A stretch of DNA of 64,000 nt from an uncultured Clostridia bacterium (GTDB taxonomy: Bacteria > Acidobacteriota > Aminicenantia > UBA2199): assembly GCA_964400545.1 (NCBI GenBank), contig CAYNUG010000001.1:2394-66393 (forward strand), read 5' to 3'. Below the pieces are notes generated by a model. The model saw only the letters and a list, made by a program, of their open reading frames with translations. It ran no database searches and was not told where the DNA came from. Positions 3,374 to 64,000 of the stretch are shown here, in pieces. Numbering within the stretch: the stretch's first letter is position 1; the number at the start of each line of letters is the position of its first letter. Position numbers and translations under genes: made by a program.

Positions 3374-4049
3374 TTTCGTTCAGGATGACGGTGAAGGCTC
3401 CCCTGGGATCCTTACTGGCGGTGATGGGTCGGCCGATAACAAGATAATCTGCTCCGGCCTCAACTGCCATTTTTGGAGTGAAGACCCTTTTCTGATCCCC
3501 CTTTGCTGCCCAGTGAGGTCTGATACCCGGAGTCACCAATTTTATTCTTTCCCCCAGTTTTTCCTTTAATATTTTTATTTCTAGTGGAGAACACACAAAT
3601 GAATCAAGCCCCGAATCGAGCCCCAATCTGCAGAGTTTTAGCACAGCTTCTTCCGTTCCGTCATTAATGCCGGTCTCTGCAAGATCTTCATCCGAAAAAG
3701 AGGTGAGGACAGAGACTCCCAGTACTTTCATATCTGCAGAATCTTCAGCTGCAAGCACTGCTTTTTTTATCATATCCCTCCCTCCACTCAAATGGATCGA
3801 AATAAATCGCGGGTCATACATTAGTGAAGATTTGACAGCCCAGAAAACTGTATTAGGTATGTCTTTGAATTTGAGGTCCAGGAAAACATTTTTTTTCTTC
3901 TCTTTAAGCAACTTCATGATCTTGGATCCATATTTCATAAATGCCTGCAGCCCCACTTTATAAAAAACAGCCTCATTTAAGGTCTCAACAAAAGACTTTG
4001 CAACTTCAAACCTGTCAAAATCAAGAGCAACAATTATTCTTTCTCTCAT
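3363..4049 (-). CDS. pyrF: orotidine 5'-phosphate decarboxylase
   Basis: 228 aa with IVALDF, DLKFKDIPNTV and GADYLVIGRPI motifs. 4-nt start/stop overlap with pyrD; last gene of the pyrK-pyrD-pyrF string. Confidence 0.85.
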   Translation of the reverse strand: MRERIIVALDFDRFEVAKSFVETLNEAVFYKVGLQAFMKYGSKIMKLLKEKKKNVFLDLKFKDIPNTVFWAVKSSLMYDPRFISIHLSGGRDMIKKAVLAAEDSADMKVLGVSVLTSFSDEDLAETGINDGTEEAVLKLCRLGLDSGLDSFVCSPLEIKILKEKLGERIKLVTPGIRPHWAAKGDQKRVFTPKMAVEAGADYLVIGRPITASKDPRGAFTVILNEITG

Positions 4050-4957
4050 ATCTTCAGGCCTCCTCTTATTTCCTCAAGACTTTTGATCTTAAGTTGATCC
4101 ATCAATTCCATAGTTTCATTTATGATCCGGACAGATCCGGTAGGTTCTACAATATTAACGGTTCCCGTCTGAACAGCTGCAGCCCCTGCAAGAATGAACT
4201 CAAGTACATCTCTCCCTGTCATTATCCCCCCTATCCCAATAACAGGAATATCAACAGCATTAGCGACCTCCCATACGATCTTCAGCGCAAGAGGCTTGAT
4301 GGCAGGCCCGGATAATCCTGCAAAAAAGTTCTTGAATACAGGTCTCCTCTTTTCTATGTCAAGAGCAAGCCCGAGAAAAGTATTGACAACAGAAATCGCA
4401 TCCGCACCCGCCTCTTCAGCCGAACCCGCAATAGCGGCAATATCTGAAACATTAGGTGAAAGTTTTACGATCAGTGGTTTTTTTGTATTTTCCTTCACAA
4501 GTTTGACCACCCTACCGGTGTCATGTGGGCTCTGTGCAGGACAGCTGCCTCCCTCCCTCACATTCGGGCAGGAAATATTCAACTCCAACATTGCAACTTC
4601 TTCCATATCATCAAAGATACTGGCAACTGCAAGATATTCTTCATCAGAACCGCCACAAACATTAACGATGATCGGAGTAGATGTTTTCAAAGCCACATCT
4701 TTGATGATCGTGGTAAGACCTTCGGCACCTGGTCCGGCCAGACCTATCGAGTTAAGAAGACCGGAATAGGTTTCCCTTATCCGTGGAGGATCATTACCTT
4801 CCCTCTCTTCCAGATAAACCCCCTTCATCACAAATGCGCCGAGAAGATCAAGATCGAAGAACCGGAGAAATTCGCCACCGTATCCAAATGTACCCGATGC
4901 TGGTATAACAGGATTTTTCAGTTTTATAAATCCAAGATCTGCAGTCAGGTCAGCCAT
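4046..4957 (-). CDS. pyrD: dihydroorotate dehydrogenase, class 1B catalytic subunit
   Basis: 303 aa with LKNPVIPASGTFGYG, ELNISCPNV and IPVIGIGGI. Overlaps pyrK by 13 nt. Confidence 0.9.
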   Translation of the reverse strand: MADLTADLGFIKLKNPVIPASGTFGYGGEFLRFFDLDLLGAFVMKGVYLEEREGNDPPRIRETYSGLLNSIGLAGPGAEGLTTIIKDVALKTSTPIIVNVCGGSDEEYLAVASIFDDMEEVAMLELNISCPNVREGGSCPAQSPHDTGRVVKLVKENTKKPLIVKLSPNVSDIAAIAGSAEEAGADAISVVNTFLGLALDIEKRRPVFKNFFAGLSGPAIKPLALKIVWEVANAVDIPVIGIGGIMTGRDVLEFILAGAAAVQTGTVNIVEPTGSVRIINETMELMDQLKIKSLEEIRGGLKI

Positions 4958-5715
4958 TCAATATCCTCCATCCTGAATACAGGCCCATCTGTACAAACCT
5001 TCTTGTATTTTCCGTCACTGCCCTTCACGGCACAGCTGTGGCATACTCCGAAACCGCATCCCATATAGGCCTCCAGAGAGACAAAATTCCGGATATCGAG
5101 AGATCCGATTTCTTTATTCAATGATCTGAGCATTCCTTCAGGACCACAGGAAAAAGTAACGCTAATCCTGTTCCTTTCAACTATATTTTTTATATCAGTA
5201 GTAACAATTCCTTTTTTATATCCGGAGCCGTCATCTGTATAGAAAATCGTTTCTGTTAAAGGAAATCTTTCTATTTCTCCTGTGAAATTAAGATCGGATC
5301 CAGATCCGGCCCCATAGATCAATGAAACATTGTTCGACTCCGAATACCTTTCAAGTGCAAAATAAAGAGGAGCTATCCCTCTCCCTCCACCTATTAAAAG
5401 CAGATTTTCTCCTTCATATCCGGGAAAAGTATTGCCGAGGGGACCGATAGCCATCACTTTATCACCCTCCCTTTTTAATGCCATGAGATTACTTCCCCTT
5501 CCAACTACCTCATAGTAAATATAAAAATAGGGGGGATCAGTCTTGAATATTCCGAAAGGTCTCTTTAAAAGAGGATCGTGCCCTCCTGAAACAGCAACCA
5601 TTACAAAATTTCCGGGTTCACTGTTTTTTGATATATATTCCGATTCTATCTTCATAAGATAATATTTTCCCCGGACAACAGTGTTGGAGGCTATCCTGCA
5701 TTCTTCTTCTATCAT
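4945..5715 (-). CDS. pyrK: dihydroorotate dehydrogenase electron-transfer subunit (FAD/2Fe-2S)
   Basis: 256 aa with a flavin reductase-like fold (RPFGIF, LLIGGGRGIAPL) and the C-terminal Cys cluster CGFGVCHSCAV...C. Confidence 0.85.
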   Translation of the reverse strand: MIEEECRIASNTVVRGKYYLMKIESEYISKNSEPGNFVMVAVSGGHDPLLKRPFGIFKTDPPYFYIYYEVVGRGSNLMALKREGDKVMAIGPLGNTFPGYEGENLLLIGGGRGIAPLYFALERYSESNNVSLIYGAGSGSDLNFTGEIERFPLTETIFYTDDGSGYKKGIVTTDIKNIVERNRISVTFSCGPEGMLRSLNKEIGSLDIRNFVSLEAYMGCGFGVCHSCAVKGSDGKYKKVCTDGPVFRMEDIEWLT

Positions 5716-45157: not shown

Positions 45158-46672
45158 TTGAAGAAGCCGGTTTGTTTAATAATCAGAGACGGATGGGGCA
45201 AAGGTGATCAAACAGATTCAAATGCAATATTTGTAGCAAAAACACCTTTTACAGACGGTATAGAGAAAAAATTCCCTACAACAATGATTAAAACATCCGG
45301 ACTGGATGTAGGGCTACCGGAAAGATATCAGGGCAATAGTGAGGTCGGCCATCTTAATATCGGAGCAGGAAGGATCGTTTACCAGAGCCTCACTAGAATT
45401 GAGAATTCCATTAATAACGGAGAATTCTTTAAGAATAAGAAATTAAGAAAATCAATAATATCTGCGATCAAAAAAAAAGCCACTATTCATTTGATGGGAC
45501 TTATTCAGGAAGAAGGTGTCCACGCTGTTACCAGGCATTGCTTTGAAATATTGAAGATCGCAAAAGATGAAGGTGCCAAAGATGTGCTCATTCATGCAAT
45601 AACAGACGGGAGGGACACGCCACCGAGATCGGCACTGGAACATCTGAAATTTCTTCAGGATGGAATTAACAGAATAGGAATAGGAAGAATTGCATCTGTT
45701 ACCGGCAGATACTATATGATGGACAGGGACAAAAGGTGGGACAGAACCGAAATCGGCTATAGGGCCATAATGGAAGGAAAAGGACTGCATGTTAAGAACT
45801 GGGAAGAAGCAGTCCGGAATAATTACGCCCAGGGTATAACTGACGAATTCATTAAGCCCTGCACAATAAACTATACAGGGATCGATCGGGACGATACTTT
45901 TATTTTTTTCAACTACAGATTTGACAGAACACGCCAAATAACCAAAGCAATTGTCGAAAAAGATTTTTCTGAATTCAGTACCATTAGGCATAACATGGAT
46001 TTCCTGACAATGACCCATTATTATGATAACGGGAATTTTACCGAACTTTTTTCAGAACTCACATACAAAAACATTCTGGGAGAAATTATTTCTTTAGAGG
46101 GGATCAGACAATTAAGGATCTCTGAAACTGAAAAATTCGCCCATGTTACATTCTTCTTTAATGCACTCAGAAATAAACCATTTCCCGGAGAGGACAGAAT
46201 TCTCGTCAACAGTCCAAAAGTTGCAACCTATGATAAAAAACCTGAAATGTCCGCTTTCGAAATAACTGAAAAACTCCTGATCGCGATCAGGTCGAAAAAG
46301 TATGATTTAATAATAGTGAACTTCGCAAACTGTGACATGGTGGGTCATACCGGCGTTTTCAACAAGATACTAAAAGCAGTTGAAACTGTGGATTCATGTA
46401 CAAATAAAGTGTCTGAAGCTGTCCTTGATCAGGACGGAGTTGTCATTCTGACCGCAGATCACGGCAACGCCGAAGAGACAAAACTCGAGGACGGATCTCC
46501 GATGACATCACATACAACAAATCCGGTTCCTCTTACATTGCTTGGGGCGGGAAATATCAAACTCAGATCCGGCGGAAAGCTCAGTGACATCGCTCCAACC
46601 ATACTGGAGATCATGGGGATAAACCAACCTCCCGAAATGGATGGAGTAAGTCTTATAAAAAAATCTTCCTGA
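45158..46672 (+). CDS. gpmI: 2,3-bisphosphoglycerate-independent phosphoglycerate mutase
   Basis: 504 aa from a TTG start, with GNSEVGHLNIGAGR, TDGRDTPP, NFANCDMVGHTG and TADHGNAE. Confidence 0.9.
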   Translation: MKKPVCLIIRDGWGKGDQTDSNAIFVAKTPFTDGIEKKFPTTMIKTSGLDVGLPERYQGNSEVGHLNIGAGRIVYQSLTRIENSINNGEFFKNKKLRKSIISAIKKKATIHLMGLIQEEGVHAVTRHCFEILKIAKDEGAKDVLIHAITDGRDTPPRSALEHLKFLQDGINRIGIGRIASVTGRYYMMDRDKRWDRTEIGYRAIMEGKGLHVKNWEEAVRNNYAQGITDEFIKPCTINYTGIDRDDTFIFFNYRFDRTRQITKAIVEKDFSEFSTIRHNMDFLTMTHYYDNGNFTELFSELTYKNILGEIISLEGIRQLRISETEKFAHVTFFFNALRNKPFPGEDRILVNSPKVATYDKKPEMSAFEITEKLLIAIRSKKYDLIIVNFANCDMVGHTGVFNKILKAVETVDSCTNKVSEAVLDQDGVVILTADHGNAEETKLEDGSPMTSHTTNPVPLTLLGAGNIKLRSGGKLSDIAPTILEIMGINQPPEMDGVSLIKKSS

Positions 46673-46760: not shown

Positions 46761-48035
46761 ATGAAAAATATGTTCAAAATTTTCAGCATTATTGTACTTA
46801 TGTTAGGACTCTCGTTCAGCGCATATTCAAATGGATTAAATCTGAACGGAATGGGTACTAAAGCTATAAGTATGGGTGGTGCATTTATTGCAGTTGCAGA
46901 CGATTACAGCGCAGTATTCTGGAATCCCGCAGGATTGACGCAGATGGACAAAGCAAACTTCACTGCTTTTTCATCCTTCATAGTTCCAACAGGCACCTAC
47001 AAGTATGCAGTCGCCGGTATAGACACGACATCAGAAAGTAAGATCTTTCCAGCCCCGGCAATTACATATTACAAACCACTTTCTGACAAACTGGTTTTCG
47101 GACTTACTTTTTATGCAACATCGGGAGCAGGGGCTTACTGGAATGGTGCAGACCTTAAACCGCTTAACGTAGGATTCCCCGCTGATACAAAAGCATACAA
47201 ATGGGAAAGTAAAGTTGGCGGACTTACCGTTTCACCTGTCATTGCATTCAAAATAAGCGATAAGTTCTCACTTGGCGCAACTCTAAATATTACATACGGA
47301 ATGCTGGATATGAACAGACATGCTCTTGGTTTACAATACACGGAATCCGCAACCGGTATCGGCTTTGGTGCAACAATCGGTGCAATGTTCAAACCTTCGG
47401 ATAAGTTCAGCATCGGATTAACATTTAAAACCCCTCAAAAGCTTACTTTGAAAGGGGATATTGCTCTTGAACGTCTCAGTAATGTGTTACCTATCCCGGG
47501 ATTAAATGATTCGGTAGAGATAACAAGAGATATCACATGGCCGATGTGGGCCGGTGTAGGAATCGCTTTCAAACCTACAGATAAACTTACAATTGCTTTT
47601 GATGTCCAGTATACCAAATGGTCAACTCTCGACGAACTTCCTGCCGAAACGGATGACACATTATGGAACACTTCATTGCCGTTTATCGGGAAACTGATCG
47701 ATGGAACTTCGTACGAATTGATGTGGGAAGATGCAACTCAGATAAGAGTGGGATTCGACTACAAACTTTCTGACACATTTTCACTGAGAGGCGGTTACTA
47801 TAACGATCCGGCTCCAGCACCTGATACAACACTCAACATACTCCTCCCCAGTATTACATATAATGTATTCACACTCGGTTTCGGTTACCATACCGAAAAG
47901 ATCGTTCTTGATGCAGGCTTTGAATATCTGAGCGGAGCTGACAGAGAGGCTGACATGTCTCTGAGTAAAGCAATGCCAGGTACACATGGGATGAAAATGC
48001 TGGTTCCGTCCATCAGCTTAACATTTAATTTTTAA
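46761..48035 (+). CDS. FadL/OmpP1/TodX-family outer-membrane transport protein
   Basis: 424 aa with a signal peptide, GTKAISMGGAFIAVADDYSAVFWNPAGL and the C-terminal aromatic ...SLTFNF. Confidence 0.7.
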   Translation: MKNMFKIFSIIVLMLGLSFSAYSNGLNLNGMGTKAISMGGAFIAVADDYSAVFWNPAGLTQMDKANFTAFSSFIVPTGTYKYAVAGIDTTSESKIFPAPAITYYKPLSDKLVFGLTFYATSGAGAYWNGADLKPLNVGFPADTKAYKWESKVGGLTVSPVIAFKISDKFSLGATLNITYGMLDMNRHALGLQYTESATGIGFGATIGAMFKPSDKFSIGLTFKTPQKLTLKGDIALERLSNVLPIPGLNDSVEITRDITWPMWAGVGIAFKPTDKLTIAFDVQYTKWSTLDELPAETDDTLWNTSLPFIGKLIDGTSYELMWEDATQIRVGFDYKLSDTFSLRGGYYNDPAPAPDTTLNILLPSITYNVFTLGFGYHTEKIVLDAGFEYLSGADREADMSLSKAMPGTHGMKMLVPSISLTFNF

Positions 48036-48134: not shown

Positions 48135-49046
48135 ATGGATAACGAGATACATATTCCGACAGATGTTCCGAACGGAAGTATAAATGAATATCTTTCAAAT
48201 GCCGATGAGATAACACTCGGTTCCGGGAGAGTTATGCTTTTCGCAGGTGACCAGAAAATTGAGCACCTGAATGCAGACTTTTATGGGGATAATATACACA
48301 AAGATGATGGTGATCCTGAGCATCTTTTCAGGATAGCCGACAAAGCCGAGATCGGGGTTTTTGCAACCCAGATGGGATTGATATCAATGTACGGCAGTGA
48401 TTATCCGGAAGTTCCATACCTTGTGAAGTTAAATTCAAAAACTAATCTGGTCAAGACTGCTCAGAAAGATCCGGTTTCACTACAGCATATAGATATGGAT
48501 CAGGTTATTGATTTCAAGAATAAATCGGGACTTAATATTCTCGGGATCGGTTACACAATATATCTCGGAAGTGAATTTGAGCACTTAATGATAAGAGAAG
48601 CAGCTCAGGCTATTCGTCACGCACATGAATACGGGCTGGTCTCAGTACTCTGGATATATCCGAGGGGACAGTCCGTAAAAAATGAAAAGGATCCCGATCT
48701 CATTGCAGGAGCTACCGGAGTAGCTGCAACACTTGGCACAGACTTTGTAAAGGTCAACTATCCGAAAAAAGAAGGCGAGGAATCATCAGAAATGTTTAAA
48801 AGAGCTGTGATCGCGGCAGGAAAAACAAAAGTAATATGTGCAGGAGGATCAAGTACTGATCCGAAACTTTTCCTACAGCGTCTTCATGACCAGATCCATA
48901 TATCCGGAGCAATGGGAAATGCAACAGGAAGAAATATCCATCAAAAATCCCTCGAGGATGCTGTACGGATCGCAAATGCAACTTCAGCAATAACTATCCA
49001 TGACAAAAGTGTTGAAGAGGCCTTTAAAATTTACAACGGAAAATAA
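48135..49046 (+). CDS. DhnA/archaeal-type class I aldolase (fructose-bisphosphate aldolase class Ia family)
   Basis: 303 aa of the DeoC/FbaB superfamily pattern, with GTDFVKVNYP (Schiff-base Lys context) and VICAGGSS. Substrate assignment is uncertain. Confidence 0.6.
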   Translation: MDNEIHIPTDVPNGSINEYLSNADEITLGSGRVMLFAGDQKIEHLNADFYGDNIHKDDGDPEHLFRIADKAEIGVFATQMGLISMYGSDYPEVPYLVKLNSKTNLVKTAQKDPVSLQHIDMDQVIDFKNKSGLNILGIGYTIYLGSEFEHLMIREAAQAIRHAHEYGLVSVLWIYPRGQSVKNEKDPDLIAGATGVAATLGTDFVKVNYPKKEGEESSEMFKRAVIAAGKTKVICAGGSSTDPKLFLQRLHDQIHISGAMGNATGRNIHQKSLEDAVRIANATSAITIHDKSVEEAFKIYNGK

Positions 49047-53066: not shown

Positions 53067-53095
53067 TTGACATTATTTTCCCCCAAACATAGAAT
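53067..53095 (+). promoter_or_regulatory. sigma-70-like promoter candidate heading the 53.1-64 kb same-strand gene array
   Basis: TTGACA (53067-53072), 17-nt spacer, TAGAAT (53090-53095); GGAGA RBS before the ATG at 53128. Confidence 0.4.
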
Positions 53096-53127
53096 TAATT
53101 GTTCTATAATAATAATAGGAGAATATT

Positions 53128-53970
53128 ATGACAGTAAAGAAAAAAACAGCAACTAAAGAAAACTGTAATTGGGTCTTTAACCTTATAGTAAAATTTGTCG
53201 ATGTAATGAGAAATGTACTTAGTGAGAAACTTTTCAAATTTTTAAAAAAATGGCTTCTCATCCTCGGGAATTGCGGATTTTATGTAGCTTCCGCTCTCGC
53301 TTTTCTAATAGGTCTCATAGCTGCAATCAGAACAGAATCATTCGGGGTATTTGCAACAGGATTCGGATATGCGATCGGGTTTTTCGTCCTTCAGTACGTA
53401 GCGGTAAAATTTGCAAATGCCGGAGATAAGCTGATAGAGAACAACAAGACGGGACTGGCTTCAGCGGCCTTCCTTGATAGCATAGGTCTATTGTTCATGA
53501 TCGGAGGTGCACTTATTCTGCTATTCAATTCATACTTAGCTATAAAGCAAGGGGCATTTTCACCGTTTTTAGAAGGAATTGCAGCCTTTATTGTGTTTGA
53601 ACTGTTCGCACTTCTTGCACTTAACCCGAAAACAGTAACTTTAGAGGTTGTTCCCGGAACTTCAGCAGGACAGGAAGCAATAGGGATCGTCACTTTCTTC
53701 CTGAAATCGTTCATGAAACTAGTTCCTATCATTTACGGCGTAGGGATTATTGTTACAACGATCCTTATGTTCATCCACTCCTTTGGATTGTTCAAGGAAG
53801 GCAGAATGACATTTGCGTGGCTGAGAGTTACGGGAGATTTCCAGACAATAGCAATAATTGCGTTGCTTCCTCTATTAGCTTACATTATTTTTGCTTTTGT
53901 TTTCCTTGCTATTGATGTAATAAGGGCGATACTTTCTATCCCATCGAAACTGGACAAACTGGCAAAATAG
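53128..53970 (+). CDS. hypothetical polytopic membrane protein
   Basis: 280 aa with about 6 hydrophobic helices and no recognisable motif. First gene of the nucleoside array. Confidence 0.45.
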   Translation: MTVKKKTATKENCNWVFNLIVKFVDVMRNVLSEKLFKFLKKWLLILGNCGFYVASALAFLIGLIAAIRTESFGVFATGFGYAIGFFVLQYVAVKFANAGDKLIENNKTGLASAAFLDSIGLLFMIGGALILLFNSYLAIKQGAFSPFLEGIAAFIVFELFALLALNPKTVTLEVVPGTSAGQEAIGIVTFFLKSFMKLVPIIYGVGIIVTTILMFIHSFGLFKEGRMTFAWLRVTGDFQTIAIIALLPLLAYIIFAFVFLAIDVIRAILSIPSKLDKLAK

Positions 53971-53989
53971 ATCAGATTAATCCCTTAAA

Positions 53990-56284
53990 ATGGCAATAAA
54001 TCTGATAATAAACGGTTGCCCTCTCGAGATATTCGATGGGGCAACCATAGGAGACGCCATAAGGAAATTCTCTCCTGATACACTTTCTGATGTTGAGCAG
54101 GGAAGATCCGAAGTCAGGGATTTGGACGGCAACTTGTACTACCTTAGCGGAGAACTGACCGGAGGAGAAGTATTTGGAATTGAAAAAAAATCACAATCGG
54201 AGAAAAATATGGATCAATCAAAACACTCACTGATTACTATAGTTTTAATAGCATTATCTCTCATACTTCTTGGAACATTCCTGATCAGGGCAGATAGTGA
54301 AGAAACAACAATCACCATATTTCATCTTAATGATATACACGGAACTATCAAAAATATGGGGAAAATCACTTCAATTGTTGAAACAGAAAAAGCAAATAAT
54401 CCGAATGTATTCCTTATGGAGGCAGGAGATAATTTCAGTGGAAATCCGGTTGTCGATCAGTATGATCCTAAGGGCGAGCCCATATTGGTATTGATGAATA
54501 AAATGAAGTTTGATGTGGGAGTATTAGGTAATCACGATTTTGATTTCGGGAAAAAGATATTAAAAAGATTTATGAAGAAAGCAAATTTTCCGATCTTATG
54601 CTGTAATGTAAAAAGCAATGATCCCGACTTCCCTCAGCCTGAACCTTATACAGTATTAAAAACCGAGAACGGAATTGATCTGGTTATTCTCGGATTGATC
54701 CAAACAGAAGCACATTCGGGAATTCCCAGCACGCTTCCTGCTAACGTTAAAGATCTTAGATTTTTTAAAGGAACTGAATTTGCTTTAAAATACAAATATT
54801 TGAAAAAAGATAACAATATCTTCATTGCCCTCAGCCATCTCGGATTTGGAAAAGACAAGGAACTTGCTGCCAACATGAAGGAACTTGACTTGATAATTGG
54901 TGGTCACTCTCACACACTGATTGAGAACCCCGCGTTTGAGAACGGAGTACTAATTGCACAGGCCGGGGCACATGCAGACTACCTTGGCAGAATCGATATT
55001 GTGGTCAAAAATGGTAAAATAATAAGCAGGAAGGGCTCTGTTATTGATCTTCATAAAGTAAAAACAAGTAACAAAGAAATTGATAAACTTGTTACAGATT
55101 TCAACAGCGAAAGTTCTCTGAACAATGTCCTTACCGTGATCGACACCACTATCACCGGAAGAAACGACCTGGGTCTAATGGTCACTGATGCTGTTCGTGA
55201 GGACCTTGGCCTCGACATGATCTTCTACAATAAAGGAGGGATCAGGATAAACAGATTATCCGGTAAGGTCAGGGCCAAAGATATTTACTCTATGCATCCT
55301 TTCGGGAACTATATCGTTGAGATATTGATGGATACTTCGGAAATAAAAAACCTTATCAAAAATGATTATGAAAGTCACAGGGGACTCGATATAATCCCTT
55401 CGGGACTAACCTACAGAGTAACCAGAGATCTGAACAAAAAAGTTATTAAAGTTGAATTATTCGATCTTAACGGATACAGGTTGCCGGACAACAGAAAATT
55501 CAGGGTCGGACTCAACAACTATATCGTAAGTTCTTATAATTTCACACATAAAGATCCGGGGAAATCTACAAATGCGAAAACAGTGGATATTATGCTCAGA
55601 TTCTTTTCTAACCTGAAAAAGAAATTGAATTACTCTGATGTAGTAAGAGCCGAAGAAAAAATCGTCTATTCAGGGAATGTTAAAACTTTGGGTGTAACGG
55701 AAACGGATATTTTTGCAGCAAAGAAAACATTCTATAAAAACTCCCCATCCGGAAATCTTATAACAGATGCGATGAGGGTTCAAACAAGTTCTGATCTGGC
55801 GTTATTCCCGACCAGGCTTTTAAGAGAAGGATTGATCATACAAAAAGGAAAAAAGATATACAAAGAGGTACTTCCCGATCTTTACAGTTTCATAAAACAA
55901 AGCAAAGTTATAAAGATCACACTTACCGGGAAGCAATTAAAAGATTTCATATTTAAAAGGACCGGACAGAAGAACAATATAGACCTTCAGATATCGGGAG
56001 CATCATACTCCGTCCTTTATGATAAGGAAAATAAGGTTTGTAATGTAGAATTTAGTTTATCCACAGATCCGATCTTCAGTGAAGCAAAATCCTACAGCAT
56101 TGCCATGATCGAATATGAATTCAGGAATTTCTATAAATTGAAAAAATTAACCGCCAAACCTGAAAGGGTAAAGAAAGGACTTGAGGATATTTTGTCAGAA
56201 TATATCATGGCTAAAAAGATCATCACAGAACAAATAGCAATACCAAGGATCCTATTAAAAAAACAAGTGAAAGCGAGGAGGTAA
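53990..56284 (+). CDS. membrane-anchored 5'-nucleotidase / metallophosphoesterase (UshA-like)
   Basis: Motifs LNDIHG, GDNFSGN, GNHDFDFG and GGHSH, plus a C-terminal 5'-nucleotidase domain and TM LITIVLIALSLILLGTFLI. The alternative start ATG 54209 has GGAG 6 nt upstream. Confidence 0.8.
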   Translation: MAINLIINGCPLEIFDGATIGDAIRKFSPDTLSDVEQGRSEVRDLDGNLYYLSGELTGGEVFGIEKKSQSEKNMDQSKHSLITIVLIALSLILLGTFLIRADSEETTITIFHLNDIHGTIKNMGKITSIVETEKANNPNVFLMEAGDNFSGNPVVDQYDPKGEPILVLMNKMKFDVGVLGNHDFDFGKKILKRFMKKANFPILCCNVKSNDPDFPQPEPYTVLKTENGIDLVILGLIQTEAHSGIPSTLPANVKDLRFFKGTEFALKYKYLKKDNNIFIALSHLGFGKDKELAANMKELDLIIGGHSHTLIENPAFENGVLIAQAGAHADYLGRIDIVVKNGKIISRKGSVIDLHKVKTSNKEIDKLVTDFNSESSLNNVLTVIDTTITGRNDLGLMVTDAVREDLGLDMIFYNKGGIRINRLSGKVRAKDIYSMHPFGNYIVEILMDTSEIKNLIKNDYESHRGLDIIPSGLTYRVTRDLNKKVIKVELFDLNGYRLPDNRKFRVGLNNYIVSSYNFTHKDPGKSTNAKTVDIMLRFFSNLKKKLNYSDVVRAEEKIVYSGNVKTLGVTETDIFAAKKTFYKNSPSGNLITDAMRVQTSSDLALFPTRLLREGLIIQKGKKIYKEVLPDLYSFIKQSKVIKITLTGKQLKDFIFKRTGQKNNIDLQISGASYSVLYDKENKVCNVEFSLSTDPIFSEAKSYSIAMIEYEFRNFYKLKKLTAKPERVKKGLEDILSEYIMAKKIITEQIAIPRILLKKQVKARR

Positions 56285-56286
56285 AA

Positions 56287-56856
56287 TTGGCTCAACTATA
56301 CTACAGACACTCAACAATGAACGCCGGGAAATCAACAGAAGTATTGAAAATAGCACACAATTATGAAGAACAGAATAAAAAAGTTCTCCTCTTTACACCT
56401 TCAATTGACGACAGGTACGGAGAGGGAAAGATCACATCAAGAATGGGTTTCCAGCGTGAAGCAATAATGATCAAATCGGATACAGATATTTATGCAATCG
56501 CCGAGAAAGAGAGTCCTTTTTGTATTCTCATTGATGAAGGACAATTCCTTAACCGCCAGCAGGTGATCACGCTGACAAAAATAGTTGATGAACTTAATAT
56601 ACCCGTAATTGTTTACGGGCTTAAGAACGATTACAGGAACCAATTATTTCCGGGAAGCGAAGCACTTCTCCTCCTTGCAGATAAGATAGAGGAAGTGAAA
56701 ACAGTATGCTGGTATTGTACAAGAAAGGCAACCATGCTTATAAAATTCAAGGATGGAAAGCCTGTCAACAAAGGTGAGCAGATAGAGATCGGTGGAAACG
56801 ATAAGTACACTTCTGTATGTAGAAAATGCTATTCTGCCAGATTACCGATCATTTAA
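56287..56856 (+). CDS. tdk: thymidine kinase
   Basis: 189 aa from a TTG start, with P-loop MNAGKSTE, ILIDEGQF, and the zinc ribbon CWYC...CRKCY. Confidence 0.9.
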   Translation: MAQLYYRHSTMNAGKSTEVLKIAHNYEEQNKKVLLFTPSIDDRYGEGKITSRMGFQREAIMIKSDTDIYAIAEKESPFCILIDEGQFLNRQQVITLTKIVDELNIPVIVYGLKNDYRNQLFPGSEALLLLADKIEEVKTVCWYCTRKATMLIKFKDGKPVNKGEQIEIGGNDKYTSVCRKCYSARLPII

Positions 56857-56921
56857 ACAGTTAATAACCCTTATCGAACTTGAAAATAGTATAATAAAGT
56901 TGTAAAGTCATATAATAAAAA

Positions 56922-57560
56922 ATGGAAAACAATAAGCCGCTGGTAATTGGTGTAGCCGGAGGGAGTGGATCCGGGAAGACCACGATCATTAATTCGATAA
57001 TAGAAAAGATCAATCCTTTTGATGTGGTAACACTTCAGCATGATTCCTACTATAAGAACAACAATCATCTTCCTCTACTCGAAAGAGAGAATATTAATTA
57101 CGACCATCCTGATTCGCTAGAAACAGATCTTTTAGTTTCAAATCTGGAAGGTCTATTGGAATGGAAAGAAATCGAAACACCGATCTATGATTTCAAAACC
57201 CATTCAAGAAAAAAAAAGGGACTGATAAAGAAACCAGCCGAAGTAGTGATAGTTGACGGTATCCTGATATTTGTTGAGGAAAGATTAAGAGAACTTATGG
57301 ATGTAAAGATATTCGTGAACACCGATAGCGATATAAGGTTCATAAGAAGATTGAAAAGGGATATGATCGAAAGGAACAGAAGTCTTGACTCTGTAATAAA
57401 TCAATATCTGGCAACAGTAAAACCTATGCATCTCGCTTTTGTTCAACCCAGCCGTAGATTTGCAGATATCATTATTCCAGAGGGAAAAAGTCCTATCTCA
57501 ACAGCAATGGTTGTAAATCTTATAGAAAGCCATTTAAAAAAAGGTCAGAAAAAGAACTGA
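56922..57560 (+). CDS. udk: uridine kinase
   Basis: 212 aa with P-loop VIGVAGGSGSGKTT, HDSYY and VIVDGILIF. Confidence 0.9.
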   Translation: MENNKPLVIGVAGGSGSGKTTIINSIIEKINPFDVVTLQHDSYYKNNNHLPLLERENINYDHPDSLETDLLVSNLEGLLEWKEIETPIYDFKTHSRKKKGLIKKPAEVVIVDGILIFVEERLRELMDVKIFVNTDSDIRFIRRLKRDMIERNRSLDSVINQYLATVKPMHLAFVQPSRRFADIIIPEGKSPISTAMVVNLIESHLKKGQKKN

Positions 57561-57566
57561 AGGCTT

Positions 57567-58163
57567 ATGTCTGGAGAATTTGTTATGGTAGAAAAAGAAT
57601 TTATAAGTGCACAGCAGTTGTTGGAAGATTCTTTCCGGCTTGGCATTAAGATCCTCGAGAGTGGTTTTAGACCAAACTACATTGTCGGGATCTGGAGAGG
57701 CGGCACTCCCGTAGGAATAGCCGTTCAGGAATTGTTGGATTATTTTGGAATAAAAACAGACCATATCGCAATAAGAACATCATCCTATGAAGGGATCGGC
57801 AAAAGAAAAAAAGAGATCAGGGTTCACGGTCTGGATTATATCTCAAACAGTATCAATTACGATGATAATCTGCTGATCGTTGATGATGTATTCGATACAG
57901 GGTTAAGCATTGAAGGAGTTTTAAATTCTCTCAAAGCGAAAGCCAGAAGGAACACTCCCAAAGATATAAGGATCGCAACATCCTATTACAAACCGGACAA
58001 CAAAAAAACTGACTTCAAACCAGATTATTATATTCATGAAACATCCAACTGGCTTATTTTTCCGCATGAACTTGATGGATTATCAAAAGATGAGATCGAA
58101 AAATATAAACCAAATGTTTCAAAACTAATTAAGGCGGTAAACAAAAATGGAAATAACACGTAA
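57567..58163 (+). CDS. purine phosphoribosyltransferase-family protein
   Basis: 198 aa with the PRPP-binding loop LLIVDDVFDTGLS. Base specificity cannot be determined from sequence. Confidence 0.6.
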   Translation: MSGEFVMVEKEFISAQQLLEDSFRLGIKILESGFRPNYIVGIWRGGTPVGIAVQELLDYFGIKTDHIAIRTSSYEGIGKRKKEIRVHGLDYISNSINYDDNLLIVDDVFDTGLSIEGVLNSLKAKARRNTPKDIRIATSYYKPDNKKTDFKPDYYIHETSNWLIFPHELDGLSKDEIEKYKPNVSKLIKAVNKNGNNT

Positions 58164-59361
58164 ATTTATAGAAAAGATACCAAAAACTGATTTGCATCTT
58201 CATTTAGACGGTTCTTTGAGATTGGAAACACTTATTGAACTTGCCGATGATGCAGGTATAGAACTTCCGGCCAAGACTGTCGAAGGTCTGAAAAAAACTG
58301 TTTTTAAAGATAAGTACAATAACCTTGGAGAATATCTGAAGGGGTTTTTCTATACTGGCTCAGTAATGCAGACAGCAGATTCTCTTGAACGAATATCTTA
58401 CGAACTCGCTCTGGATAACATCAACGAAGGAGTTAAATATATAGAGGTCAGGTTTGCACCGCAATTACATCAGAATGATGATCTCGGTATAATCGATGTC
58501 CTAAAAGCAGTTAACAAAGGGTTGAAAAAAGCTCAGACAGAATTCAATGATCGCAAAGAGATAGGTTCCGGTACAGAACCGCCTTTCGAATACGGAATAA
58601 TCTCCTGTGCAATGAGAATGTTTGATTACGGATTTTCCAAATATTTCGATGATCTGCTGAACGTTCACAAATATTCTGACAGAAAATGGATATTCTCATT
58701 AGCTTCACAGGAACTCGTAAGAGCTTCAGTAGATGCCAGGGATAATCATGACATTCCGGTTGTCGGATTTGATCTGGCTGGAATGGAAAAGGGATATCCT
58801 GCTGTTGATCATAAATATGCATACAACCTCGCACACAAAAGTTTTCTGAAAAAAACTGTCCATGCCGGGGAAGCTTACGGGCCTGAAAGTATTTTTCAAG
58901 CAATAACCGAACTACATGCTGACAGGATCGGACATGGGCTTCATCTGTTTGATGCGAACATTATCAAGAATGATGACATAATTGATAAAGAGGATTATGT
59001 AAACGATCTTGCCCAGTACATTGCTGACAGGAGAATCACAATCGAAGTTTGTCTTACTTCAAATATGCAGACGAATCCTAAATACAAAACTCTCGAAGAC
59101 CATCCTTTCAGAAAAATGAAAGATGCACGATTATCTCTGACCTTTTGCACGGACAACAGAACCGTATCATCAACAACGGTAACTGATGAGATATTTAAAG
59201 CTGTCAACACATTCGATATTTCTCATAAGGATCTCAGAGACATAGTCGTATACGGCTTTAAAAGGAGCTTCTTTCCGGGATCATACCTGAAGAAAAGACG
59301 ATATGTAAGAAGGATCCTCAATTATTATGATGAAATTGAAAAAGAATTCGGACTAAAATAA
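58147..59361 (+). CDS. add: adenosine deaminase
   Basis: 404 aa with PKTDLHLHLDGS, VHAGEAYG, and FCTDNRTVS. Overlaps the upstream gene by 17 nt. Confidence 0.85.
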   Translation: MEITRKFIEKIPKTDLHLHLDGSLRLETLIELADDAGIELPAKTVEGLKKTVFKDKYNNLGEYLKGFFYTGSVMQTADSLERISYELALDNINEGVKYIEVRFAPQLHQNDDLGIIDVLKAVNKGLKKAQTEFNDRKEIGSGTEPPFEYGIISCAMRMFDYGFSKYFDDLLNVHKYSDRKWIFSLASQELVRASVDARDNHDIPVVGFDLAGMEKGYPAVDHKYAYNLAHKSFLKKTVHAGEAYGPESIFQAITELHADRIGHGLHLFDANIIKNDDIIDKEDYVNDLAQYIADRRITIEVCLTSNMQTNPKYKTLEDHPFRKMKDARLSLTFCTDNRTVSSTTVTDEIFKAVNTFDISHKDLRDIVVYGFKRSFFPGSYLKKRRYVRRILNYYDEIEKEFGLK

Positions 59362-59383
59362 CACTACTTACAAAAGGAGTATT

Positions 59384-60736
59384 ATGGAATTGATAACCAT
59401 ACTGAGAGGATTGGCAGGAGTCATTTTTATTCTGGGAATTACATTTTTATTTTCGAACAATAAAAAAAAGATCAATTGGAGACTCGTGGGAACAGGACTT
59501 TCCATACAGTTGATATTTGCTGTTTTTATCATTCACGGTGAAACATTCAGATCCTGGTTCTTTATCCTGGGGTGGCCAAAAGATATGCTCAACTGGTTCG
59601 GGGGAGTAGTGGTTAAGATCCTCAGTTTTATTGCCGAAGGGTCTCAGTTCGTATTCGGATCTCTTGCAGTAAGTCCGGGAAGTAATGGCAGTTTGGGATT
59701 CTTTTTTGCATTTCAGGTTCTACCGACAATAATATTTTTTGCTTCTTTAACAGCTGTATTGTATTACACGGGTGTGCTTCAGATGATCGTAAAATGGATG
59801 GCATTTATTATGGCAAAACTACTCGGCACAAGTGGAGCAGAATCATTATCCAATACAGCAAATATTTTTATAGGGCAAACGGAAGCTCCGATCCTCATAA
59901 GACCTTATATTAATTCAATGACAAATTCAGAACTCCTTACAATAATGATAGGCGGGATGGCGACAGTAGCGGGGGGTGTTATGGCCAGCTACATTCAAAT
60001 GTTGGGTCATGCAATGTCAGTGGCAAAAGGTATCCCTTTAAATGAGGCACAATTGGGATTTGCCATCCATCTTATTACAGCCAGCGTAATGGCTGCACCG
60101 GCTTCGATCGTTATAGCAAAAATGCTTCACCCCGAAACAAAAGTTCCTGTAACACTCGGAAAAGTTACAATGGAAGTTGAGAAAAATGGTTCCAATGTTA
60201 TCGAAGCTGCGGCAAACGGTGCATCTGACGGACTTAAACTGGCACTGAATGTCGGGGGAATGCTGATTGTTTTTATAGCTTTCATCTATTTGTTCAATTA
60301 TCTGTTCCATAGTTTCGGTGACATCATCGGGATCAATGCATGGCTTACTGCAAAATTCGGACAACCATTATCTATGCAACTTATTATGGGACTTCCATTA
60401 AAATATCTGGCAATAGGTATCGGTGTTCCTACCCAGGATGCATTCGACTTCGGGAGACTATTCGGAACGAAGATCGTTCTTAATGAATTTGTTGCTTATC
60501 TGGATCTTGTAAAAATAATAAAAGCTAATGCAATGAGCGCAAAGGGTATAACAATGGCCACTTTCGCACTTTGTGGTTTTGCAAACTTTTCATCAATTGC
60601 TATCCAGCTTGGAGGTATTGCACCCCTTGCTCCTGGCAGAAAAAAGGACATAGCCGCTCTCGGTCTGAAATCTGTTCTCGGGGGAGGATTGGTAACACTC
60701 CTCACTGCTACACTTGCCGGTGTTCTTATCTGGTAG
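59384..60736 (+). CDS. nupC: NupC-family concentrative nucleoside transporter
   Basis: 450 aa, polytopic, with IFIGQTEAP, MATVAGGVMASY, and CGFANFSSIAIQLGGI. Confidence 0.85.
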   Translation: MELITILRGLAGVIFILGITFLFSNNKKKINWRLVGTGLSIQLIFAVFIIHGETFRSWFFILGWPKDMLNWFGGVVVKILSFIAEGSQFVFGSLAVSPGSNGSLGFFFAFQVLPTIIFFASLTAVLYYTGVLQMIVKWMAFIMAKLLGTSGAESLSNTANIFIGQTEAPILIRPYINSMTNSELLTIMIGGMATVAGGVMASYIQMLGHAMSVAKGIPLNEAQLGFAIHLITASVMAAPASIVIAKMLHPETKVPVTLGKVTMEVEKNGSNVIEAAANGASDGLKLALNVGGMLIVFIAFIYLFNYLFHSFGDIIGINAWLTAKFGQPLSMQLIMGLPLKYLAIGIGVPTQDAFDFGRLFGTKIVLNEFVAYLDLVKIIKANAMSAKGITMATFALCGFANFSSIAIQLGGIAPLAPGRKKDIAALGLKSVLGGGLVTLLTATLAGVLIW

Positions 60737-60865: not shown

Positions 60866-62272
60866 ATGGAGACAAAAATAAACAGCAAGATCGCGATCGG
60901 AGCCGATCATGGAGGATTCCCTCTTAAAGAGGTCCTTAAAAGTTTCCTTGAAGAAAAAGGATATCAGATCATTGACTGCGGGACAAACAGTACTGATCCG
61001 GTAGATTATCCGGTATACGCAACCAAAGTGGCAACACTTTTATCCAATTCCGAAGTTGATATCGGTATCATGATTGATGGTGCCGGGATCGGATCGTCCA
61101 TGGTTGCCAATAAGATAAACGGAGTCAGAGCAGCTCAATGTTATGATGTAACAACGGCAGTGAATGCAAGGGAACACAATAATGCAAACCTTCTTACCCT
61201 TGGAGCGGGACTAACCGGAACTGAACTAGCAAAAAAAATTGCAGAGGCTTTCCTGACCCACGAATGCACAATAGACCGCCATATAAATAGGGTGGCAATG
61301 ATTGATGCCCTTGACAATGACAAGACATCCATGGGAGGTCCAGGAGATCCTGTCGGGGAGGATAATTTGGAAGCTATTACAGAAAAAGATATCGATCAGA
61401 TCGCAGAAAAAGTAAGATCAATAATCTCTTCAGAAAATAATATTTCTGAGACTAAAGTAAATGAGGACCCGGAAAGAGAAATGATATGCCAATGCGGAGT
61501 TCATGTAGAGAGGAAACCGGAAACATTGAGAAAATTCATAGAATTTGGTGTTGCCAGGCTCGGTTATAACGATGCCATCGGAGTGGAGTGCGTCCCGGAA
61601 GACATTGCAGCTTGTATCGACCATACGCTGCTTAAACCTGAGGCTACAGTTGATGATATTAAAAAATTATGCGCAGAAGCCAAGGAATACAAATTTGCCG
61701 CCGTCTGTATAAGCCCTAGTTATGTGGCTCTCGCTTCACGTGAACTTACAGGAAGCAATGTTATAGTATGTACTGTGGTCGGATTTCCATCTGGAGCACA
61801 CGTTTCAGATATCAAGGGAATGGAAACAAGAAGAGCAATAAGAGATGGAGCTAAAGAAATTGATATGGTTATCAATATAGGTGCCCTGAAGAGTAATAAT
61901 GACGATCTGGTATACAAAGATATAAGGACAGTATGTGAAGCTTGCGAGGATGGAGGAGCACACAGTAAAGTGATAATCGAAGCCGCACTTCTTACGGACG
62001 ATGAGAAGGTCAGGGCCTGTCAATTGGCAAAAAAAGCAAGAGCGGACTTTGTAAAAACATCAACCGGATTCGGGCCACACGGGGCAACAGCAGCTGATGT
62101 CGAACTAATGAGCAGTATTGTAAGGGAATCGGGGATTGGTGTTAAAGCTGCGGGTGGGATCAGATCGCTTGAGGACGCTGCAGCGATGATCAATGCAGGT
62201 GCAACCCGAATAGGAGCCAGTGCCGGAATAAAGATTCTAAAAGCCGCAGGTGGAATAACAGTTTCATCCTGA
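60866..62272 (+). CDS. fusion protein: RpiB/LacAB-type sugar-phosphate isomerase + deoxyribose-phosphate aldolase (DeoC)
   Basis: 468 aa. The N-domain has [10 protein letters not shown]...[17 protein letters not shown]...[16 protein letters not shown] linker of about 85 aa follows. The C-domain has [18 protein letters not shown] and [10 protein letters not shown] (Lys codon 62054-62056). Confidence 0.85.
61385..61426 (+). other. candidate internal encapsulation peptide (amphipathic helix) in the RpiB-DeoC linker
   Basis: [14 protein letters not shown]. It matches EEIDRIAERVVSLL of the AldDH N-terminus at 7 of 14 positions, with conservative changes at 5 more. Confidence 0.45.
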
Positions 62273-62285
62273 TAAGGAGGATAAT

Positions 62286-62909
62286 TTGGTCGATCTGAGA
62301 GCATACGTTTTTTTAGATAAGATCCAACCCCAGTATGCAGCATTTCTGGGAACAATTGCACAGGGATTCTTACCTGTTGCAGGAATGTCTTCACTTTATA
62401 TCGAGATCTCACCCGGAATAGAGATCAACAGGGTTACTGATATCGCATTAAAATCTACAAATGTCACACCGGGCATGCAGATCGTTGAAAGGTTGTACGG
62501 AATGCTTGAGATTCACTCTGCATCCCAGGCCGATGTCAGGCAGGCCGGAAGAGCGATCCTTGAAGCTCTGGATATCAAAGAAGAGGAAAGGTGGAAACCC
62601 AAGATCTATTCACAGCAGGTTATCAGAAGAATAGATGATTATCAGACACAATTAATAAATAGAATGAGACACGGCAACATGATTGTCCCCGGAGAGACAA
62701 TGTTCGTTCTGGAAGTCCAACCCGCAGCCTATGCAGCACTTGCTGCAAATGAAGCAGAAAAAGCTGCATCCATTAATATCCTGGAAGTAAGATCCTTCGG
62801 TAGTTTCGGAAGAGTATATCTCGGTGGGGATGAGAGAGATATTGATGTCGGATGGAGAGCGGCTGTAAATGCGATCGAAGATGTGACAGGAAAAACAGAT
62901 CATAAGTGA
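62286..62909 (+). CDS. tandem BMC-domain shell protein (BMC-T-like)
   Basis: 207 aa from a TTG start 4 nt after AGGAGG (62275-62280). Two halves each carry a BMC-like core: [24 protein letters not shown]...[13 protein letters not shown] and [29 protein letters not shown]...[12 protein letters not shown]. Subtype undetermined. Confidence 0.6.
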
Positions 62910-62940: not shown

Positions 62941-63249
62941 ATGGCAGATGCACTGGGAATGATAGAAACGAGGAATTTTCCCGCAGTAGTAGAAGCAGCG
63001 GATGCGATGGTAAAAGCTGCAAAAGTGGAATTAGTATCATATGAAAAAACTGGCGGCGGATATGTGACAGCAATAATCCGTGGAGATGTGGCAGCGGTAA
63101 AAGCTGCCTGTGACGCAGGGAGAATTGGTGCAGCCAGGGTCGGGGAAGTTGTTGCGATCCATATCATTGCAAGGCCTCATCAAAATGTTGATGCTGTTAT
63201 ACCGCTGGGAAGAACTAAAGAAGGAAAGTCTGAAATGAAGGACAAGTAA
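62941..63249 (+). CDS. BMC-H hexameric shell protein (PduA/EutM/CcmK-like)
   Basis: 102 aa: [56 protein letters not shown]...HIIARPH. AGGAGG RBS. Confidence 0.9.
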
Positions 63250-63264: not shown

Positions 63265-63564
63265 ATGATCCTCGCAAAAGTTATCGGCACTGTAGTATCA
63301 ACCCAAAAAGAGTCCACAATGGATGGGCTTAAACTCCTGCTCCTTCAGCAGATAGATTCAGAAGGAAAGGAAAAAGGGAATACCGTTGTTGCGGCAGATG
63401 CAGTTGATGCCGGTGTAGGTGAGATCGTCCTGTATGCAAGCGGAAGTTCAGCCAGACAGACAAAAAGAACTGATAATCGCCCATGTGATGCAGTAGTTAT
63501 GGCCATTGTAGATAATTGGGAAGTTAATGGAAAGATCGTTTATAAAAAAGGTGCGGACGGCTGA
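63265..63564 (+). CDS. BMC-P pentameric vertex protein (EutN/CcmL/PduN-like)
   Basis: 99 aa: MILAKVIGTVVSTQKESTMDGLKLLLLQ...VAADAVDAGVGEIVLYASGSSAR. Confidence 0.85.
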   Translation: MILAKVIGTVVSTQKESTMDGLKLLLLQQIDSEGKEKGNTVVAADAVDAGVGEIVLYASGSSARQTKRTDNRPCDAVVMAIVDNWEVNGKIVYKKGADG

Positions 63565-63643: not shown

Positions 63644-64000
63644 ATGGCACCATTAAAAACAGAAGAGATAGACAGAATAGCAGAGAGAGTAGTCTCACTT
63701 TTAAAGAAGGACACTACTGCCAGCAATACGTTCTCCGGTGGTAATGGCATTTTCTCTTCAGTTGATTCTGCCGTAAACGCAGCTGCAAAAGCTCAGAAAG
63801 AATTTGTGAGACTCCCTCTTGAAGAAAGAAAAAAGATAATTGCGAACATAAGAAAAGAGATGCTCGCTAAAGCAGAAGAACTTGCAAAAATGGCATGGGA
63901 AGAAACAGGCATGGGAAGATGGGAAGACAAGATTGAAAAGAACCGTCTTGTGATCAACAAAACTCCCGGGACAGAGATATTAAAACCGGATGCATATTCA
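63644..64000 (+). CDS. acylating aldehyde dehydrogenase (PduP/EutE-like), 5' fragment running off the right edge
   Basis: Not in the ORF track. ATG 63644 follows AGGAG (63633-63637); 119 codons are open to the window end: MAPLKTEEIDRIAERVVSLLKKD...GIFSSVDSAVNAAAKAQKEFVRLPLEERKKIIANIRKEML...WEETGMGRWEDKIEKN. This is the typical start of BMC-associated AldDH. Confidence 0.75.
   Translation, partial: MAPLKTEEIDRIAERVVSLLKKDTTASNTFSGGNGIFSSVDSAVNAAAKAQKEFVRLPLEERKKIIANIRKEMLAKAEELAKMAWEETGMGRWEDKIEKNRLVINKTPGTEILKPDAYS
63662..63703 (+). other. candidate N-terminal encapsulation peptide of the aldehyde dehydrogenase
   Basis: EEIDRIAERVVSLL, with amphipathic helix periodicity, is followed by a Ser/Thr/Gly-rich linker (TTASNTFSGGNG) before the catalytic domain. 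Confidence 0.5.

Follow-up and report, generated by a model that had tools for sequence, protein, structure and literature searches.

We analyzed a 64,000-nucleotide stretch of DNA (the window) from an uncultured bacterium of the Aminicenantia (GenBank assembly GCA_964400545.1, contig CAYNUG010000001.1), toward the 3′-end of which a seven-gene nucleoside array is followed by the first genes of a bacterial microcompartment (BMC) locus of the sugar phosphate utilizing (SPU) type. The array lies on the plus strand behind a promoter-like site that we call P1 (53067 to 53095; TTGACA-17-TAGAAT, 11/12 match). Its open reading frames (ORFs) encode, in order, a multi-pass membrane protein of 280 aa with 5 to 7 hydrophobic helices (53128 to 53970); a membrane-anchored 5′-nucleotidase of the UshA phosphoesterase family, 764 aa long (53990 to 56284; Metallophos and 5_nucleotid_C domains); the thymidine kinase Tdk (56287 to 56856; PF00265, 2e-51; NF003300, 243 bits vs a cutoff of 195); the uridine/cytidine kinase Udk (56922 to 57560; NF004018, 272 vs 180; TIGR00235, 249 vs 220); a divergent purine phosphoribosyltransferase (PRTase) of the 6-oxopurine type (57567 to 58163; PF00156); an adenosine deaminase (58147 to 59361; PF00962, 5e-70; TIGR01430, 217.3 vs a cutoff of 216.55), whose translation contains the metal-binding HxH motif as DLHLHLDGS; and a concentrative nucleoside transporter of the NupC family (59384 to 60736; Nucleos_tra2_N, Gate, and Nucleos_tra2_C domains). 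The ORFs are spaced by 19, 2, 65, 6, −17 (an overlap), and 22 nt, and a 129-nt gap separates the end of nupC from the start of the RpiB-DeoC gene at 60866. The ORF list and family scans bore out every coordinate and gene call that a first-pass annotation had given for the plus-strand array and its promoter, as well as its description of the first ORF as a membrane protein of unassigned family.

The NupC-family protein scored 351 bits with TIGR00804, under the subfamily cutoff of 442, and the PRTase matched the HGPRT models weakly, below their cutoffs, its best matches in the PDB being the purine PRTases 1vdm and 4z1o. The 5′-nucleotidase fell below all NCBIfam equivalog cutoffs. Ahead of its single transmembrane helix (aa 81 to 99) it carries a 72-aa cytoplasmic N-terminal extension (53990 to 54208, the first 73 codons), which had no Pfam match even at an E value of 1 and whose amino acid sequence is kept between the window and two of its relatives, L086 and L088 (the 176 loci fetched for comparison carry L numbers). 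A signal-peptide-like start replaces this extension in the enzymes of L090, L091, and L096. The 280-aa membrane protein was searched against Pfam and NCBIfam and matched nothing; its 68 homologs are all labeled Aminicenantes or Acidobacteriota, and it is a lineage-restricted family. An AlphaFold2 model of it was all-helical and confident (pLDDT 85.7) and had no fold neighbor in the PDB (best Foldseek E value, 0.18; TM-score, ≤0.23). The linkage of this protein to nucleoside genes fails at 46 to 52% identity, where the homologs do not lie beside a 5′-nucleotidase gene (in L092 the contig stops just 3′ of the homolog). The homolog in L093 is followed by a gene with no assigned function and a dUTPase gene.

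The BMC locus opens with the signature enzyme of SPU loci, an RpiB-DeoC fusion of 468 aa (60866 to 62272; PF02502, 6.5e-49; PF01791, 2.6e-22). On the same plus strand follow genes for a BMC-T shell protein of the CsoS1D/CcmP-like double-domain type (62286 to 62909; CsoS1D_N and BMC domains; NF053796 CcmP, 335 bits vs a cutoff of 340), a BMC-H hexamer shell protein (62941 to 63249; PF00936, 3e-28), a BMC-P pentamer shell protein of the EutN/CcmL family (63265 to 63564; PF03319), and the N-terminal part of an acylating aldehyde dehydrogenase (AldDH; 63644 to 64000; PF00171), whose gene is cut by the window end. In L001, a contig 99.97% identical to the window, the AldDH is complete (a 473-aa Aldedh protein), and 3′ of it lie a tandem BMC-T gene (202 aa) and two BMC-P genes, followed by a minus-strand pdp. 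The locus contains the components by which SPU loci are recognized, namely DeoC (PF01791), RpiB (PF02502), a PF00171 AldDH, and BMC-H, BMC-T, and BMC-P proteins.

The fusion protein scored 276 bits vs 117 with TIGR00126 (deoC) and 147 vs 139 with TIGR01120 (rpiB), and all of 22 homologs have the same Schiff-base and acid/base residues in the DeoC domain (those in FVKTSTG, VKAAGG, and EIDMV). The linker between the two domains contains an amphipathic helix (aa 171 to 188; nt 61376 to 61429) that is kept in relatives, and an amphipathic helix at the AldDH N terminus (aa 5 to 22; KTEEIDRIAERVVSLLKK) resembles it; by their sequences, the two look like encapsulation peptides. In the RpiB domain, we aligned seven BMC-type fusions (those of the window, L004, L009, L012, L086, L090, and L174) and found Asp9, His10, His99, Arg133, His134, and Arg137 kept in all of them. 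In all seven fusions, the position of Cys66 of E. coli RpiB is occupied by Asp (D71 in the window, 61076 to 61078) and that of Thr68 by Ala. Cys66 is the catalytic base of the E. coli enzyme, and the Asp in its place could point to another catalytic base or to another substrate. Beside the last BMC-P gene, some relatives carry an additional gene directly 3′, for a class II aldolase (PF00596; L090, 15439 to 16071; L174, 15682 to 16323); it is not in the window lineage and is reminiscent of the loci that Axen et al. 2014 called "SPU-like" (PMC4207490).

The array and the BMC locus each have a conserved promoter. P1, which the first-pass annotation had rated a good promoter-like site, was indeed the best promoter match in an 11.5-kb scan, and five relatives, including L096, share its CTTGACA and the neighboring spacer without any change and its −10 box, TA(G/A)AAT, with hardly any. 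A second promoter-like site on the plus strand, P2 (60778 to 60806; TTGAAA-17-TAAAAT, 10/12 match), lies inside the gap between nupC and rpiB-deoC. Its block CTATTGAA ... TA(A/G)AAT is invariant in six relatives, and the remainder of the 129-nt gap is about 66% identical. Because each has its own conserved sigma-70-type promoter, the array and the BMC operon are probably separate, adjacent transcription units, with read-through between them being possible. The first-pass statement that the array runs straight into the BMC genes was correct in the shared strand and the 129-nt distance, but continuity across a gap with its own conserved promoter is doubtful. One long operon driven from 53067 to 53095 would agree with the single orientation of all the genes and with the gap itself, in which we sought a terminator-like site or hairpin and found none and whose RNA fold is not stable (z = 0.31). 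We nevertheless consider such an operon rather unlikely, as the sole strongly conserved element of the gap is a sigma-70-like −35/−10 pair with 17-nt spacing, and the sister BMC loci start at their own promoter 5′ of deoR.

Other regulatory elements were also considered at these sites. We rejected the idea that the gaps contain a riboswitch or a structured leader, as there was no Rfam match at an E value of ≤0.1 between 50000 and 64000 and the fold had the z score given above. The TGAACAnnTGTTCA box described below for DeoR was absent near either promoter. An inverted repeat, GAACA-N10-TGTTC, covers the −10 box of P1 (window 53085 to 53115) in L086 and L089, is degenerate in the window (AACA-N10-TGTT), and is absent from L090 and L096; it may be a lineage-specific operator or a chance occurrence.

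Consistent with the first-pass annotation, deoA, deoB, deoD, udp, and cdd were all absent from the window in Pfam searches of 30 mid-sized ORFs and in phmmer searches of all ORFs for which the E. coli proteins served as queries. The same annotation had called the array complete, which we cannot uphold. Three of the seven genes (tdk, udk, and the PRTase gene) encode anabolic salvage enzymes, and neither deoB nor a purine nucleoside phosphorylase gene was found in the window or its flanks. Its proposal that the missing enzymes lie downstream or elsewhere held in part. In L001, which represents the same population, a gene for a 449-aa pyrimidine-nucleoside phosphorylase, pdp (TIGR02644, 562 bits vs a cutoff of 409; 337 bits to an E. 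coli DeoA query), lies about 2.2 kb past the window end, convergent with the BMC genes after the last BMC-P gene, and the contig ends there. The pdp gene also stands directly after the last BMC-P gene in L086, L088, L090, and L094, and after a stand-alone deoC in L096; in four relatives it is followed by cdd, encoding a cytidine deaminase of the tetrameric type (TIGR01354, 156 vs 114). Just past the shell genes, then, lie pdp and, in relatives, cdd, but not deoB or a purine nucleoside phosphorylase gene. One deoC candidate elsewhere in the window, a 303-aa protein of the DeoC/LacD superfamily (48135 to 49046), was rejected, as it is a DhnA-type class I aldolase (PRK06852, 512 bits vs a cutoff of 420).

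Two observations place the organism in Aminicenantes, namely its RpoD (91% to "Candidatus Aminicenantes" and 81% to "Acidobacteriota") and the labels carried by homologs of the first ORF. The full layout, comprising tsaB/rimI, the array, the BMC locus, and convergent pdp-cdd, recurs in L086, L088/L089, L090/L091, and L094/L095, with RpiB-DeoC identities of 73 to 82% and, for three of them, DNA identities of 77 to 78%. For a wider view, we surveyed SPU-type loci, taken as those with DeoC and at least two shell-gene types, in a GTDB-wide scan with an RpiB-DeoC alignment. The seven-gene array was absent within up to 10 kb of all 28 other SPU-type loci, which come from many phyla, so conservation of the array/BMC adjacency, a point raised by the first-pass annotation, holds among the close relatives but not beyond them.

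A metagenome scan with a NupC alignment identified a locus in a sister lineage, L096, that has the same upstream genes, the same promoter, and the same seven-gene array, followed after a 43-nt gap by a stand-alone deoC of 226 aa and then by convergent pdp and cdd; shell genes and AldDH are absent from this locus. At a single position of one nucleoside cluster, then, stands either the BMC locus or a free deoC. In a neighbor-joining tree of concatenated Udk, PRTase, adenosine deaminase, and NupC, 199 of 200 bootstraps recovered the BMC-bearing loci as a monophyletic group, to which L096 was sister, and the outgroup locus L099 has only udk-PRT-ADA-nupC among unrelated genes, with neither deoC nor BMC genes. 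The L096 DeoC is 65% identical to the DeoC domain of the window, vs 76 to 78% for the DeoC domains of Marinimicrobia BMC loci, and in a neighbor-joining tree of DeoC, calculated without support values, it is sister to the BMC-type enzymes. This identity pattern fits an acquisition of the BMC module from a different phylum, and the GC content at third codon positions (GC3) bears no sign of recent transfer. A recent horizontal transfer had been considered from the base composition of the BMC genes (GC of 0.41 to 0.46 vs 0.37 to 0.41), but it was rejected, because GC3 is the same (0.33 to 0.40 vs 0.34 to 0.40) and the excess is due to amino-acid composition.

We tentatively propose, as a conjecture that we would put at somewhat less than even, that the whole BMC module and a free deoC are interchangeable at this one position, that the BMC clade and L096 form a natural matched pair, and that the front end of the array, i.e., the membrane protein, which is specific to Aminicenantes and has no known fold, and the 5′-nucleotidase with its conserved cytoplasmic N-terminal domain, is a previously undescribed nucleotide-acquisition apparatus. 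If this is true, comparing the BMC clade with L096 would show the benefit that a cell gains by enclosing one acetaldehyde-producing step.

The nearest foreign BMC loci, whose RpiB-DeoC proteins are 64 to 67% identical to that of the window, belong to Neomarinimicrobiota (L004 to L007) and to L174 (labeled Calditrichia), L175, and L176. The seven-gene array is absent from all of them. Each has instead, immediately upstream on the same strand, a gene for a SorC-family regulator of 313 to 315 aa, the best matches of which are B. subtilis DeoR (PDB 8r7y, 4e-78; NF053881, 377 bits vs a cutoff of 420). In B. subtilis, dra-nupC-pdp is under repression by DeoR, and deoxyribose-5-phosphate relieves it (PMC11229326). 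The sequence 5′ of deoR holds a CTTGACA promoter and two boxes, the exact palindrome TGAACAnnTGTTCA and TTGAACAnATGTyA. The palindrome occurs in only 6 of the 176 fetched loci, each time no farther than about 20 nt 5′ of the first codon of deoR (L004, 9016 to 9029; L005, 3511 to 3524; L006, 4998 to 5011; L007, 5787 to 5800; L174, 8961 to 8974; L175, 8979 to 8992), and is similar to the operator half ATTGAACAAAATTTCAAT of B. subtilis (PMC11229326). We take both boxes as candidate operators through which DeoR would autoregulate a deoR-BMC operon. The window has none of these features, as a SorC/DeoR homolog, TGAACAnnTGTTCA boxes, and a PGM/PMM mutase are all absent from it.

A gene for a PGM/PMM-family mutase lies directly upstream of the deoR/BMC operon in L174 (7281 to 8618), L175 (7441 to 8790), and L006 (3427 to 4794), and about 8 kb upstream in L176. 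The protein scored 537 bits with TIGR03990, matched PDB 1wqa, and had 183 bits to the phosphopentomutase chain 9ix8; the L174 protein is nearer to generic phospho-sugar mutases than to 9ix8. It may be the non-DeoB phosphopentomutase of these SPU systems. Nucleoside genes are linked to BMC loci as well: pdp, along with the class II aldolase gene, lies 3′ of the BMC genes in L174, deoB and pdp come right after the shell genes in the Lentisphaerae locus L014, and deoA is found together with a cdd-like gene in the Chloroflexi locus L023.

Taken together, we think it likely that the region is a nucleoside utilization supercluster, in which an SPU-type BMC locus holds the place that a plain deoC has in ordinary nucleoside operons. 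In the pathway we propose, the membrane-anchored 5′-nucleotidase, to judge from its family and topology, would dephosphorylate periplasmic (deoxy)nucleotides, and NupC would import the resulting nucleosides, as its family suggests. Part of these would be salvaged, with Tdk and Udk rephosphorylating pyrimidine nucleosides and adenosine deaminase and the PRTase recycling purines. The remainder would be catabolized, Cdd and Pdp turning (deoxy)cytidine, thymidine, and deoxyuridine into bases and (deoxy)ribose-1-phosphate, which a mutase, with no gene found for it in the window and the flanks of up to about 10 kb, would convert to the 5-phosphate. Inside the shell, DeoC would cleave deoxyribose-5-phosphate, yielding glyceraldehyde-3-phosphate plus acetaldehyde, and AldDH would trap the acetaldehyde as acetyl coenzyme A; the similar amphipathic helices of the two enzymes are what suggests that they are cargo. 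The RpiB domain would pass ribose-5-phosphate to the pentose phosphate pathway.

The view that the DeoC compartment is fed by nucleoside catabolism has good support in comparative sequence context. Four independent lines point to nucleoside-derived deoxyribose-5-phosphate: the flanking genes for uptake, salvage, and phosphorolysis, with pdp, and cdd in relatives, after the BMC genes; the free deoC at the BMC position in L096; the DeoR regulators at the foreign loci; and the linkage of deoB, pdp, or deoA to BMC genes of other phyla. The first-pass annotation had proposed such a feed, and this context strengthens it, but no gene for the mutase or for a purine nucleoside phosphorylase turned up in the window or flanks, and tdk, udk, and the PRTase gene would divert part of the flow.

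Several findings weigh against this interpretation. With phmmer searches using E. coli DeoB and the L174 PGM/PMM mutase as queries, we found no phosphopentomutase gene of either type in the window or, in relatives, in up to about 10 kb beyond the locus on each side, and the route from deoxyribose-1-phosphate to deoxyribose-5-phosphate is thus not demonstrated; the sole Metalloenzyme-family protein in the window is an iPGM (45158 to 46672). A purine nucleoside phosphorylase was likewise not found in the window or the same flanks. Tdk, Udk, and the PRTase are anabolic and would draw nucleosides and bases away in competition with catabolism. At the BMC locus itself, we found neither a phosphotransacylase (PTAC) nor an alcohol dehydrogenase for cofactor recycling. 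Among the 28 other SPU-type loci, only 3 had a nucleoside gene within 10 kb in a phmmer screen, and the adjacency of the array and the BMC locus is confined to one Aminicenantes clade, which also has flanking housekeeping genes in common, tsaB and rimI on the upstream side and waaA and lpxK on the downstream side. Part of the conservation seen in this clade is plain synteny.

Such observations could mean that the array is an ordinary salvage operon, functionally independent of the compartment, and that the adjacency is an inherited gene order of one clade with no metabolic meaning. The separate conserved promoters, the three anabolic genes, the common housekeeping flanks, and the absence of the adjacency from all 28 other SPU-type loci would all agree with this, as would the occurrence of cdd-tdk-nupC (tdk-nupC where the flank is short) without a BMC in about 55 metagenomic loci and of the udk-PRT-ADA-nupC core alone. 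On the other hand, nucleoside genes bracket the BMC locus on both sides, the far side being taken by pdp, which cdd accompanies in relatives, the deoC of L096 sits at exactly the BMC position, and foreign BMC relatives carry DeoR, pdp, or deoB. Moreover, pdp-deoC-cdd is a classical operon of Firmicutes (loci L044 to L071). We therefore regard functional independence as unlikely. It is improbable that the main substrate is another sugar phosphate, or that DeoC works in the condensing direction and so detoxifies aldehydes or assimilates them, with the nucleoside genes being peripheral: the lack of an obvious role for RpiB in deoxyribose cleavage, its Asp for Cys66 in all seven fusions, the lack of PTAC and alcohol dehydrogenase genes at the locus, the class II aldolase added in some relatives (L090 and L174), and the general name "sugar phosphate utilizing" given in 2014 (PMC4207490) would leave room for it, but the DeoC equivalog score is high with invariant catalytic residues, DeoR homologs, whose B. 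subtilis prototype senses deoxyribose-5-phosphate (PMC11229326), precede the nearest BMC loci, and pdp, deoB, or cdd is BMC-linked in four separate lineages.

A nucleoside utilization supercluster of this kind can be compared with several known systems. SPU loci were defined in single-cell genomes of Atribacteria, Gemmatimonadetes, and Marinimicrobia and tied to deoxyribose-5-phosphate and DNA catabolism (Axen et al. 2014, PMC4207490). With more than 280 loci in 26 phyla, they are among the most widespread microcompartment types and have been proposed to metabolize DNA degradation products (Sutter et al. 2021, PMC8217296). The locus studied here shares with them RpiB and DeoC, the PF00171 AldDH, BMC-H, a CsoS1D/CcmP-like BMC-T, a tandem BMC-T, three BMC-P, and the proposed substrate, deoxyribose-5-phosphate from DNA degradation; like the Marinimicrobia loci (PMC4207490), it lacks PduL. 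It differs from them in its Aminicenantes host and in the placement of the BMC genes between a seven-gene nucleoside array and pdp-cdd, and from the nearest foreign SPU loci in the absence of a DeoR regulator and of TGAACAnnTGTTCA boxes from the window. SPU-type BMCs of Hodarchaeales, described in a 2025 preprint (PMC12747264), have the same proposed route, from 5′-nucleotidase through nucleoside phosphorylase and phosphopentomutase to encapsulated DERA and AldDH, but there the upstream enzymes are found genome-wide, not beside the shell genes, whereas here they are mostly physically linked.

Among operons that lack a compartment, the B. subtilis deoR/dra(deoC)-nupC-pdp system (PMC11229326) is similar in its clustering of deoC, nupC, and pdp, with cdd nearby, and in its sequence of import, phosphorolysis, and deoxyribose-5-phosphate cleavage. 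Unlike it, the locus in Aminicenantes has deoC fused to rpiB, its product presumably encapsulated with AldDH, has no deoR in the window, runs in the order nupC, deoC-BMC, and convergent pdp, and has added salvage kinases, a deaminase, and an ecto-nucleotidase. The E. coli deoCABD operon likewise pairs DeoC with a homologous thymidine/pyrimidine phosphorylase, but no deoB or deoD homolog, as found there along with nupC/nupG, is present in the window or flanks, and the aldolase step here is presumably compartmentalized. The metagenomic cdd-tdk-nupC and udk-PRT-ADA-nupC operons have the same partner genes and NupC proteins 55 to 75% identical to that of the window, whose array looks like an elaboration of them; these loci have no BMC, deoC, or pdp in the available flank.

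The first-pass annotation had inferred a nucleic-acid-scavenging role for this BMC class. Our context analysis agrees with that reading, which is largely right, but the DNA-scavenging concept is not new and was published in 2014 and 2021 (PMC4207490 and PMC8217296). What is new is corroborating context, i.e., the bracketing nucleoside genes, the equivalence of deoC and the BMC locus, the DeoR regulators of sister loci, and the relocated pdp-cdd. In a literature search of incomplete coverage, we found no paper on Aminicenantes SPU loci or on the physical linkage of such an array to a BMC, and no biochemical test of the SPU substrate, for which PMC4207490 and PMC8217296 give genomic inference only. 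Our results suggest that some Aminicenantes of anoxic sediments take carbon and energy, besides nucleotides, from the breakdown products of nucleic acids.

Some further observations concern the surroundings of the genes discussed above. The window also contains pyrF, pyrD, and pyrK (the DHOD B electron-transfer subunit) on the minus strand at 3363 to 5715; the organism therefore has de novo pyrimidine synthesis as well and is not salvage-dependent. The DhnA-type aldolase gene at 48135 to 49046 adjoins the iPGM gene and a gene for a FadL-type outer-membrane channel (46761 to 48035). The cdd-tdk-nupC operon is very common among the metagenomic NupC relatives of 55 to 70% identity, in none of which it is BMC-adjacent (L103, L107, L108, L110, L113 to L120, L128 to L149, and others). 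Finally, in L086 (17321 to 18241, minus strand), and also in L088 and L094, a gene for a radical SAM protein resembling spore photoproduct lyase (92 bits, well under the equivalog cutoff of 400) adjoins cdd.

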